Positions 17,001 through 53,788 of a stretch of 64,000 nucleotides of DNA are shown in pieces (the stretch's first letter is position 1; each line of letters begins with the position of its first letter). Position numbers and translations under genes: made by a program. The DNA lies in assembly GCA_964016885.1 (NCBI GenBank), contig OZ024740.1:240250001-240314000 (forward strand). The letters run 5' to 3'. The notes under the pieces were generated by a model. The model did no database searches. It was not told the DNA's origin and worked only from the letters and a program-made list of their open reading frames with translations. The DNA comes from Eledone cirrhosa (taxonomy: Eukaryota).

Positions 17001-17434
17001 CGCAAAAGTTCTATTTAAATTGTTGGGATACAACAAGCAAATATTTTTATAACTGATATAAAGCACTCAACAAGTATTTGGAGTAAACATACGATATTAA
17101 CAAATGGAAACTATATTTATAAAACCATATTTATTTCATTATACATATTTCAAGGACACCAAGTTAAATTATGGTGTGCTTTCATCAGACAAAATATAAT
17201 ATAGATCAGTTTTATAAATAAATATTGACATACCCTTAGAAAATGCAACCATTACGGGAGCTTCCAACAGTAATAGTTGCATTTTCTAAGGGTATGTCAA
17301 TATTTATTTATAAAACTGATCTATATTATATTTTGTCTGATGAAAGCACACCATAATTTAACTTGGTGTCCTTGAAATATGTATAATGAAATAAATATGG
17401 TTTTATAAATATAGTTTCCATTTGTTAATATCGT
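17001..17434. mobile_element. Fold-back double-hammerhead element flanked by (TA)n
   Basis: Arms ~17091-17255 and 17270-17434 are near-perfect reverse complements. HHR plus 17329-17393 (CTGATGA..GAAA-TATGTA-TA) and minus 17132-17196. ~90-bp one-sided tail 17001-17090. Confidence 0.9.
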
Positions 17435-18508
17435 ATATATATATATATATATACAAAGAGAGAGAAAGAGAGTCTGCGCTTCACGTCGAGGTCGGGATTT
17501 TACATATATCTCACTCTTTCTACCTATATATATATATATATATATATATATACTGTGTATATATATATATATATATATGTGTGTGTGTGTATGTGTGTAT
17601 GTGTGTGTGTGTGTGTGTGTGTATGTGTGTGTGTGTGTGTGTGTGTGTGTGTGTGTGTGTGTGTGTGTGTGTGTGTGTGTGTGTGTGTGTGTGTGTGTGT
17701 GTGTGTGTGTGTGTGTGTGTGTGTGTGTGTGTGTGTGTGTGTGTGTAATGTTTTGTTCTAATGCTATAAATGTTACTCGATATGTATTAGTACAAGGTTG
17801 CTTATATAATCCTATATCGTTGCAAATGTATCTCATTTGTAACGTCATATCGTTGTGTTATGTGTCCATCTGTATTCTTGTCATTTCTATAGTATATTGA
17901 TGAAAAGATTGATGGGTGAACGGTCCTTTCTTGACCCTTTCATATAATGGTTCCTTGAAAAAGAGAGGATGAGAGAAATGTACCCCAATAATTGGCTGAA
18001 ACTTTATTTTATAGACCACCAAGGAATTAATGGCTAGGTTGAATTTTAACTCAGCGAGCTCACAAGTTATTCTATCCGACACTCTAACGACCCTATAGCC
18101 ATATATATATATATATATATATATATATATATATATATATATATATATATATATATATATATATATATATATATATATATATATATATATATATATATAT
18201 ATATATATATATATATATATATAGTGGAAAATGGAACGGGAACAAAACAGAGAGGCAGTACGAACAAAGGTTTATTGGTTTCACGTTCTTGAGAGTGTGT
18301 GGTGGTGGATGGGTGTGCGTGTGTGTGTATGTATATATATTTGTATGTACTGTATATGTATATATATATATATGTATATGTATATATATATATATGTATG
18401 TATGTGTATATATATATGTATGTATGTGTATATATACATATATATATGTATTTATATGTGTGTGTATATATATATATATATATATATATATATGTGTGTG
18501 TGTGTGTG

Positions 18509-19117
18509 TCAGGTCACCAGTTGGTGCTACTGGTAACATGTATCCCAGTACAACCTGTCCCATGGTCGGGTCGTTGGCGACTAAACTGGCAACCCCACCA
18601 AGGTTTCTTGGTGAGGAGGGTGACTTTGGAAATCCTGCAGGACTAAAAACAAAACCTGTCAAAGGGCAAAGAAGCTCTTAAGAGTCAATGACCATTCAAA
18701 ATCACCGGGAGAGATGACCCCTTAGCCTTTGTCAAGGCAGAATTCTAGGAGAAGGAAAACTCTGATATAACACCTGCAACCTTGATGGTATCCAATGATG
18801 TTGACTTGTTCTTCTTTTTGGTAAATATCATCTTGGTTAAGAGAGTGGGACTCGCTTTGTGCAGTGCCTTTGCTCACTATAAAAGCTTCACGGCACAGGC
18901 ATTGCTTTATATCTGGAGATCTCTCTGCACTTGTAATCACATGGTACCATGGGCCCAGCAGTATGTGTCAATAATTGTCACAAGTGTAGTGTTTGTACCA
19001 GAGTTTTCAAGTCGCTGGCTGGACTAAAAAGTCACACTTGTTCAGCGCATCGGTGGGGGTTCTCCTACATGAATATAAAGTAGTGGCCGTACTCGAAAAC
19101 GAGTTGGCAGCCACCAT
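18509..19117 (+). mobile_element. ~607-bp non-coding retroelement (RTE-5'UTR-like head, microsatellite tail)
   Basis: Six copies in the window, all embedded in microsatellites, none with an ORF. Contains CTAGGAGAAGGAAAACTCTGA, which I recall from RTE-type 5' UTRs. Most copies have an (ATGT)n tail. Confidence 0.7.
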
Positions 19118-19140
19118 AAATATATGTATATATATATATA

Positions 19141-19447
19141 AGTAGAAGGGGTATTTAATTTGTTGGAAGTCCGACAAATATAAATGTGTATAACTGATTT
19201 AGAGCACTCAACAAGTGCTGGCGTAAATATTCAATGATATTAAATAAATGGAAACTATATTTATAAAACCACTATCCGGTGAATTTCCAACCGATAAGGT
19301 ATGATTTTCATGGGTATGTCTCTATTTATAAAACAAACTTTGTATTTTATCTGATGAAAGCGTACCAATGTGTCTTGGTACCTTGAAGTATATATAATAA
19401 AATACATATGGTTTTATAAATATAGTTTCCATGTATTTAATATCAAT
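19141..19447. mobile_element. Older fold-back hammerhead element of the 17001/53336 family
   Basis: HHR plus 19341-19406: TGTATTTTAT-CTGATGA-AAGCGTACCAA..TTGGTACCTT-GAAG-TATATA-TA/ATAAAATACA. Short inverted arm 19236-19271. Confidence 0.75.
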
Positions 19448-19481
19448 GTATATATATATATATATATATATATATATATAT

Positions 19482-52610: not shown

Positions 52611-52634
52611 ATTATTATTATTATTATTGTTCTT

Positions 52635-52915
52635 TGAGTCTCGGTCATTGATGTTATTTAACTGGAAAGTTTGTTGAAATGAATATCAAGCCGCTACCTG
52701 CAGCATCAGATATTCAGGACGTATCGGTGGGTCCTTGCTGTTCCCAGCAAGCATGCCTTTTGAAGTGTTCCAAAAAGAAGGGTTGGACTAATCTTCTTTA
52801 ACCATCCTTGGAAACTCTTTGAGATAATACCTAGTGCGCCTATGACAATCGGGACGACCTTGATTTCTTGGCAGTTCCAAATCCTTTTTAACTCCCACTT
52901 TAAATCCTGGTATCG
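52635..52915 (-). mobile_element. R4/Dong-like LINE 3' end
   Basis: Homologous to 4590-4840. Confidence 0.8.
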
Positions 52916-53290
52916 GTTGGATTGGCAGTATCGGTAGAGGGTCGGACGCCATGCTTTCCAACATAGTTACGTCACTTTACGATCTGAGTTCAAATCCCGC
53001 CGAGGTTGACTTTGCCTTTCATCCTTACGGGGTCGATAAAATAAAGTACCAGTAATGCACTGGGTAATTGCTGGCCTTGTGTCTAACGTAGAAACAATTA
53101 TTAGTATTATTATTATTATTATTATTATTAATACTTTTGGCACAAGGCCAGCTATTACCCTTGTGCATTACAGATACTTTATTTTATCGACCTCGTAAGG
53201 ATGAAAGGCAAAGTTAACCTCGACGGGATTTGAACTCAGACCGTAAAGGGACGTAACTATGCTAGAAAGAATGGCGTCCAACCCTCTATA
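52916..53290. mobile_element. Tail-to-tail inverted SINE pair
   Basis: Plus copy 52916-53105 and minus copy 53133-53290. Confidence 0.85.
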
Positions 53291-53335
53291 TATATATATA
53301 TATATATATATATATATATATATATATATATATAT

Positions 53336-53788
53336 ACGATATTAACAAATGGAAACTATATTTATAAAACCATATCTATTTTATTATACATATTTCAAGG
53401 ATACCATGTTAAATTATGGTATGCTTTCATCAGACAAAATACAATATATACCAGTTTTATAAATAAATATTGACATACCCTTTCAAAATGCAACCGTTAC
53501 TTTTGGAAGACATATCCCTGATGTTTTCCAAAAGTAACGGTTGCATTTTGAAAGGGTATGTCAATATTTATTTATAAAACTGGTATATATTGTATTTTGT
53601 CTGATGAAAGCATACCATAAGTTAACATGGTATCCTTGAAATATGTATAATAAAATAGATATGGTTTTATAAATATAGTTTCCATTTGTTAATATCGTAT
53701 ATTTACTCCAAATACTTGTCGAGTGCTTTATATCAGTTATAAAAATATTTGCTTGTTGTATCCCAAAAATTTAAATAGAACTTTTGCA
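53336..53788. mobile_element. Fold-back double-hammerhead element flanked by (TA)n (family of 17001-17434, opposite orientation)
   Basis: Near-perfect palindrome 53336-53698. HHR plus 53593-53657 and minus 53377-53441. One-sided tail 53700-53788. Confidence 0.9.

Follow-up and report, generated by a model that had tools for sequence, protein, structure and literature searches.

The whole stretch of DNA analyzed here (the window) comprises 64,000 nt of Eledone cirrhosa (OZ024740.1:240,250,001-240,314,000, forward strand), and all coordinates given below are positions within it. The DNA is AT-rich and of animal type, with a GC content of 28-44%, and carries 64 (TA)n tracts. Ten of the 63 segments lying between these tracts (elements A to J, Table 1) consist of an inverted arm that touches a tract and of an extension, hereafter the tail, on the opposite arm. 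The tail is found on a single arm in all ten elements, with its end not fixed for I, and perfect (TA)n of 10-67 nt flanks both sides of the nine elements measured (all but I). Together, the ten elements span 4,064 of the 64,000 bases (6.4%, the span of I including an adjoining piece). A, B and C form one family, D and J are distant relatives of it, and the remaining elements gave no blastn alignment to them. Local inversions made of pairs of short interspersed nuclear elements (SINEs) or of simple repeats, such as 52935-53288, 15978-16641 and 36684-36800, were not counted among the ten.

Elements A and B lie in opposite orientations and share 89% identity. A preliminary description of this pair had claimed that arms are more alike within an element than between elements, and the comparison of the four arms bore this out. 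Among the 164 columns common to them, 11 sites group by locus, none by side (tailed versus untailed arm), none crosswise, and two are private; arm distances are 1/164 within each element and 11-13/164 between the two. The variants that had been named, of the CACACCA versus CATACCA type, are locus-specific and occur in both arms of each element. The arm tree that had been proposed as a check splits the four arms by locus with a support of 100/100, no site groups left arms with left arms across loci, and topologies with the tailed arms forced together were rejected by the approximately unbiased test (p=0.0001 for A and B, p=0.005 when D was included). A tree of 10 arms also pairs those of D (99/96) and of J (99/99) by locus, the forks of A, B and C being drawn open. 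The proposed tabulation of centres and short-arm ends gave a similar picture: element lengths (433, 451 and 308 nt, respectively) and centres vary among A, B and C, with loops of 14 nt in A and 7 nt in B, and the short arm stops at the same base in A and B, leaving tails of 91 and 90 nt. The architecture said to be common to the pair, a one-sided palindrome, recurs in all ten elements of the window. Each arm of A, B and C carries a 23-nt motif, which makes six occurrences in the window against none in 100 shuffles; the motif had no match in the bacterial and archaeal genomes searched. The arms show 0-1 differences in the young copies A, B, D and G and have diverged in the old copies (12 of ~120 columns in E, 77% identity in I), which is what arms identical at first and decaying later would show.

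Outward-facing hammerhead ribozyme cores are present in each of the two arms of six elements (A, B, D, F, H and I); C has one in a single arm. The core is intact in seven of the ten elements and degenerate in E and J, and in G the cut lies downstream of it. Seven matches to a strict CTGANGA-stem-GAAA pattern were found, six of them inside A, B and D, whereas 30 shuffles gave 0.47 on average. A relaxed search returned 25 matches in the window; 14 are located in the elements or in a second copy of the H family (690-770), and all of these are directed away from the centre. When the type I hammerhead fold was applied to five distinct arm sequences, 97.8% of cells were paired compared with 40-51% when slid, and two pairs had changed on both sides; the relatedness of the five sequences inflates the shuffle control of this test. 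The arms have a type I hammerhead with a minimal stem III in a terminal repeat, as in Penelope-like elements (PLEs), and hammerhead strands diverge from the centre in every core-bearing element, in a head-to-head orientation. Of the two variants in the preliminary description, the first falls in stem II as a compensated C-G/U-A pair; the second is in stem I and pairs as U-G/U-A. Since the A and B variants keep the ribozyme pairing, they would have arisen in the source lineages, under selection on the RNA, before insertion. The helix differences between A and B point to such RNA selection rather than to neutral change at each locus. Arm-to-arm gene conversion, which had been offered as an alternative, is not needed to explain these variants, although the pattern seen in F (see below) suits conversion or a template switch.

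A link to a protein was provided by element K, a 5'-truncated PLE. The end of its open reading frame (ORF) gave a weak GIY-YIG match (Pfam E=0.0025, under the curated cut-off). A word-index search for longer relatives of this ORF yielded 0 of 57 candidates, and a full HMMER scan gave 199 relatives at E up to 0.001. Fourteen of the 16 relatives scanned carry the reverse transcriptase (RT) domain RVT_1, either upstream of the stretch that matched or at another place in the protein, and the proteins of K relatives match 13368-13695 by tblastn (best E=4e-22). Beyond a SINE cluster with an 11-bp flanking duplication, ~125 nt at the 3' end of K can be aligned with the G arm (83% over 84 nt). Judging from this alignment, at least one palindrome family, that of G, is the terminal region of an RT/GIY-YIG element. 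The peptide of the G tail was also compared with the N-termini of 13 long relatives (p=0.076). A second, decayed GIY-YIG remnant at 33991-34332 (+) (match 34021-34332, Pfam E=1.6e-6) is located upstream of the (TA)n at 34728 and is tied to no palindrome family. The window holds no RT of these families, nor any full-length copy from which direct partial-tandem pLTRs (pseudo-long terminal repeats) around an ORF could be read.

ACTC followed by GAGTR, starting 7-17 nt into the tail, is present in seven tails (those of A, B, D, E, H and I and of the piece 13206-13290) out of 11 examined. The C tail retains only GAGTGC, and the pattern is missing from the tails of F, G and J. In the background it occurs in one of 1,098 windows (cut-off 16 nt), a figure to be read for a motif picked after the fact, and most tail folds are no better than shuffles. 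The ACTC..GAGTR stem is a candidate protein-binding or start signal common to the families. In F (60264-60837), an ORF start, 27 codons long, runs off the tail end. Two further hammerhead-like pieces with a degenerate core end at (TA)n: one (16850-16952) abuts the left TA tract of A and has no tail, and a related one (13100-13290) has a ~85-nt tail with an ACTC..GAGTA stem.

The junctions provided evidence on how the palindromes may be built. The untailed arm extends further 5' in all four copies in which this can be decided (A, C, J and 690-770). In A, the loop holds 8 nt that are present in both B arms, in the orientation of the untailed arm; the tailed and untailed arms measure ~40 and ~165 nt in C, and ~62 and ~170 nt in J; the two pieces of 690-770 do not overlap. 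A strand that starts at the tail cannot copy sequence it has not reached, so any folding back of such a strand requires the tailed arm to own the loop. The furthest 5' reach of A, B and C lies within about 20 nt of one position (with p=0.017 only for the upstream similarity of A and C), which suggests a fixed 5' end of their template RNA. The untailed arm ends at a TA-like site, with a summed microhomology of 23 nt against 7.7 expected over eight elements (p=3e-4; B and C, which have the same site as A, are left out of the sum, and p=0.005-0.03 when related families are lumped). This end had been taken for a defined stop; it is more likely a defined internal start, that is, a second start of reverse transcription. 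The centres of G (0 nt) and F (1 nt) suit annealing between two strands. The untailed reach, the TA-like end and these centres favour the joining, head to head, of two target-primed cDNAs.

Elements A and B are probably short, apparently ORF-less insertions of the terminal region (pLTR and tail together) of a Penelope-like retroelement, mobilized in trans and completed by two-cDNA joining. That elements of the A/B type derive from PLEs and are built at insertion is the part of this reading that we hold with high confidence; for the two-cDNA route of palindrome building, the balance of the evidence is mildly favourable. The assignment to PLEs rather than to miniature inverted-repeat transposable elements (MITEs) follows from the outward hammerhead cores, the one-sided ~90-nt extension and the (TA)n ends, which together correspond to the described PLE structure of inverted pLTRs plus tail. 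Under this two-cDNA reading, a PLE protein with RT and GIY-YIG endonuclease would act in trans on A/B-type RNA. The endonuclease would nick both (TA)n strands; the target is seen here, and nicking of two strands is taken from in vitro work on the PAc protein (Poseidon of Anolis carolinensis). Both target ends would then prime on the element RNA, a distal 3' site giving the tailed cDNA and a TA-like site ~90 nt inside giving the untailed cDNA; we infer this priming, whereas the fixed ends and the microhomology are observed. As A, B, C, J and 690-770 suggest, the untailed cDNA would reach a nearly fixed 5' point and the tailed cDNA would halt variably. The 3' ends of the two cDNAs may finally be joined through short inverted microhomology and filled in. 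The outcome would be a head-to-head palindrome with near-identical arms from one source lineage, a variable centre and a one-sided tail. As a tentative generalization, which may well not hold, the genome would possess short PLE derivatives that lack an ORF, have the 5' end of their RNA fixed and bear 80-96-nt tails sharing the ACTC..GAGTR stem, twin-primed at two start sites, the inner one being set by annealing of the (TA)n primer, with the cDNAs joined head to head.

The preliminary description had supposed that each insertion rebuilds the palindrome from one template. Rebuilding at insertion from one template lineage is supported, but locus pairing alone, with one copy per subfamily in the window, does not prove rebuilding at every insertion. 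The hammerhead cores, and the precedent for this structure in PLEs, had escaped that description. Of the two routes that had been offered, twin priming (two cDNAs) fits the junctions better, and a simple fold-back from the long-arm end fails in A, C, J and 690-770.

Several observations weigh against the reading of A and B as PLE insertions joined from two cDNAs. No RT or endonuclease ORF linked to the A/B/C family was found in the window, and the ORF link covers G only and crosses a SINE insertion. Rfam gave no match at the gathering score over the whole window, and on three stretches at E up to 5-10 it returned generic hairpin models only and no hammerhead; standalone hammerhead folds are no better than shuffles (z of -0.2 to -1.8). 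In seven elements (B, D, E, F, G, H and I) the owner of the loop is undecided (for B, p of 0.08-0.42 either way), and the untailed reach of four copies out of four amounts to p of about 0.06-0.125 only. C and J are old, and later loss of centre sequence could mimic such a reach. C, G and J show microhomology of 0-1 nt, and for E, I and J the automatic mapping is 1-2 nt off. H and 690-770 break at nearly the same point, so centres are not always different. The arms of F are identical over their inner ~148 nt and differ 7-8 times over the outer ~110 nt (p of about 0.001-0.003), a pattern that is not explained by two independent full-length cDNAs alone and suits either conversion or a template switch. 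The initiation site of PAc is not homologous to the cut DNA (PMC11167929), whereas the inner end here shows 0-7 nt of TA microhomology. Lastly, the tails of 79-96 nt (A-E, H, J), 60 nt (F) and 41 nt (G) are longer than the 30-40 bp reported for PLEs (PMC8557442).

Among the other explanations, the one that survives best keeps the PLE and builds the palindrome from a single strand: a cDNA would start at the tail end, fold back and copy itself until it meets, at the TA-like site, a stop or a cut made by the endonuclease. Loop ownership would be the same under the self-priming on antisense RNA put forward in PMC3846280. Such copying accounts for the near-identical arms (1/164 in A and in B, 0 in G) and for the identical inner arms of F, and the mismatch located 5-6 nt from the loop in both A and B is what an imperfect primer stem would leave. 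In addition, the tail is attributed to endonuclease resolution in PMC8557442, and junction palindromes are read as self-priming in PMC3846280. However, under fold-back the furthest 5' extent should belong to the tailed arm, and A, C, J and 690-770 show it in the untailed arm. There is no overlap between the two pieces of 690-770 either, and the zero-loop centre of G needs a native palindrome, which K (~17% diverged) does not show. We consider this route unlikely.

Still less probable is the transposition of whole palindromic masters, whose arms would be kept alike by conversion or hairpin-templated repair and whose centres would vary by later deletion. With one copy per subfamily in the window, the tree is compatible with such masters; centre-out conversion would suit the identical inner arms of F, the break point common to H and 690-770 fits as well, and palindrome centres are prone to deletion. 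Yet the arms of old copies have diverged freely, as in E and I, which indicates that conversion does not keep pace. The A-versus-B helix differences keep pairing, one of them by a two-sided change, as RNA selection in source lineages would produce, and A, B and D each have a single mismatch near the centre.

Cut-and-paste transposition of a MITE or foldback DNA transposon targeting TA, which the preliminary description had set against its own reading and which long inverted repeats, TA flanks, small size and lack of an ORF might suggest, is largely refuted and very improbable: the termini are not inverted repeats, ~90 nt lie outside the palindrome on one side, length and centre vary, the ribozyme cores carry compensated changes, and G is tied to a GIY-YIG remnant. 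A fold-back chimera from amplification, sequencing or assembly has hardly any probability left, despite the richness of the DNA in (TA)n and the tandem flank duplications beside C and D, because three dispersed copies show the same arm end and tail length within different unique flanks, the arms of old copies have diverged, and all ten elements have the same polarity relative to the ribozymes. These duplications affect the flank beside the untailed arms of C (19449-19777) and D (63565-64000), with variable (TA)n between copies and periods of 73/81 and 192/136; they may reflect repair slippage at insertion or an assembly artefact.

Table 1. Elements delimited by (TA)n tracts in the window and their parts.
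Feature	Position	Strand	Description
Element A	17001-17433		Head-to-head asymmetric palindrome between (TA)n 16953-17000 and 17434-17453
A tail	17001-17091	-	91 nt, single arm; ACTC..GAGTG stem near start
A tailed arm	17092-17255	-	Hammerhead core 17148-17188 (-)
A central loop	17256-17269	+	14 nt; last 8 nt match both B arms when read within the untailed arm
A untailed arm	17270-17433	+	Hammerhead core 17337-17377 (+); terminal TA microhomology of 3 nt
Element B	53337-53787		Palindrome plus one-arm extension between (TA)n tracts
B untailed arm	53337-53513	-	Hammerhead core 53393-53433 (-); TA microhomology of 5 nt; (TA)n 53287-53336
B central loop	53514-53520		7 nt; owner arm undecided
B tailed arm	53521-53697	+	Hammerhead core 53601-53641 (+)
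B tail	53698-53787	+	90 nt, then (TA)n
Element C	19141-19448		~80% like A/B; 91-nt tail on the left; degenerate copy; tailed arm only ~40 nt
C untailed arm	within 19141-19448		~165 nt; hammerhead core at 19351 (+)
Element D	63045-63564		Distant relative of A/B/C; 93-nt tail; ~110-nt loop; hammerhead core in both arms; arms differ at 1/160 columns
Element E	62310-62666		~96-nt tail; arms ~10% diverged; degenerate hammerhead core
Element F	60264-60837		60-nt tail; centre of 1 nt; both arms with a hammerhead, identical in their inner and diverged in their outer parts
Element G	35931-36225		Perfect 254-nt palindrome without loop, plus 41-nt tail; homologous to 3' end of K
Element H	14768-14950		79-nt tail; ~50-nt arms with a hammerhead core in each; 6-nt loop
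Second H-family copy	690-770		Inverted untailed arm directly joined to a tail of which just the last ~23 nt are present; not a palindrome
Element I	12669-13100		Old palindrome; arms 77% identical, each with a hammerhead core; end of the tail not fixed
Element J	2928-3248		Distant relative of A/B/C; ~89-nt tail; arms of ~62 nt (tailed) and ~170 nt (untailed), the latter with a broken hammerhead
Element K	13367-14732	+	5'-truncated PLE between (TA)n tracts; GIY-YIG ORF end 13369-13695
K, other parts	14034, 14105-14589	+	Degenerate hammerhead core at 14034; SINE cluster with 11-bp duplication (14105, 14589); G-like 3' end

Other features were observed in the window. A relative of the arm end of element I, ending at (TA)n, is found at 59075-59171, and the next segment (59202-60199) has an intact hammerhead core at 59838. 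A short inverted repeat (ACCTGTTACCCC ... GGGGTAACAAGT) surrounds the TA tract just right of B (53831-53880) and is possibly the end of another element. Left of B, a TA tract cuts off one tail-to-tail SINE pair around (ATT)n. The dispersed SINE family to which we refer, presumably akin to an octopod family, is abundant and often forms inverted pairs or tandem clusters (52935-53288, 36684-36800, 15978-16641, 20341-21415). Remnants of long interspersed nuclear elements (LINEs) are also present, and one of them (50780-52158, +) carries an endonuclease domain (E=3e-9) in one ORF and zf-RVT (E=9e-8) in another. A unit of ~684 bp tied to (ACAT)n, which we take to resemble the 5' end of an RTE-type LINE, is repeated four times in tandem, and two more copies, one inverted and one partial, lie elsewhere (26441-29311, 18351-19144, 56314-56672).

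The structure described here is ordinary for PLEs, and such copies can be misfiled as MITEs. If transcribed, they would form long perfect hairpins, and structures of this kind have been linked to heavy adenosine-to-inosine editing in octopus and frog (PMC5625713). How PLEs form inverted repeats and one-sided tails is called unresolved in PMC8557442. Should the reading as twin-primed, ORF-less PLE derivatives be true, it would give a sequence-level account of both features that contradicts the self-priming model, and the elements would be a steady source of perfect hairpins of 100-250 bp. At a density of 6.4%, loop ownership, centres and TA microhomology scored genome-wide could separate two-cDNA joining from self-priming without bench work.

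Among known systems, L1 twin priming offers a parallel outside PLEs: both target ends prime on one RNA, which gives an inverted 5' piece, and the 690-770 copy has this same shape. In L1 inversions no sequence is duplicated into a palindrome and the end is poly(A), unlike in the window elements. The non-LTR retrozymes (10.64898/2026.07.22.740005) resemble the latter as short non-coding units with a type I hammerhead, and are held to derive from PLE pLTRs. They are, however, head-to-tail tandem units, whereas the window elements are single head-to-head pairs plus tail; no tandem array covers them, and their hammerhead pairs lie on opposite strands.

Within PLEs, the Naiads, including the Octopus families of the PMC8557442 supplement, have in common with the window elements the (TA)n preference, inverted copies and tails. 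They differ in being without canonical hammerheads and in having an N-terminal endonuclease, that of K being at the ORF end; four motifs of the window had no match in the text of this supplement. PAc comes close in mechanism, since its protein nicks and extends both target strands from two internal RT start sites that bound the tail, at AT-rich targets and with the hammerhead upstream of the start sites (PMC11167929); inverted insertions are not treated in the accessible main text of that paper. The closest likeness is to the endonuclease-containing (EN+) PLEs, which have a C-terminal GIY-YIG domain and comprise the clades Penelope/Poseidon, Neptune and Nematis. PMC8557442 describes inverted 5'-truncated PLE copies with a tail often at one end and a (TA)n bias, PMC3846280 describes head-to-head junction palindromes with self-priming on an antisense template, and PMC4209133 reports opposite-strand hammerhead pairs 100-700 bp apart. 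The head-to-head inverted truncated copy, the one-end extension (PMC8557442, PMC3846280), the type I hammerhead with a 2-bp stem III, the microsatellite target and the hammerhead pairs at this spacing (PMC8557442, PMC3846280, PMC4209133) are common to EN+ PLEs and the window elements. A and B differ from them by the lack of an ORF start, the nearly fixed 5' reach (A, B and C) and the shared ACTC..GAGTR tail stem. A literature search, with subscription papers mostly outside its reach, found neither 79-96-nt tails, the shared tail stem or the two-cDNA reading, nor a paper on twin priming in PLEs or on these families. New relative to the accessible papers are the long tail, the tail stem common to several families and the two-cDNA evidence from the junctions, all of which rest on ten elements in one window; the architecture itself is already known for PLEs, and the elements are most suitably classed among Penelope-like insertions, as truncated or non-autonomous ones.

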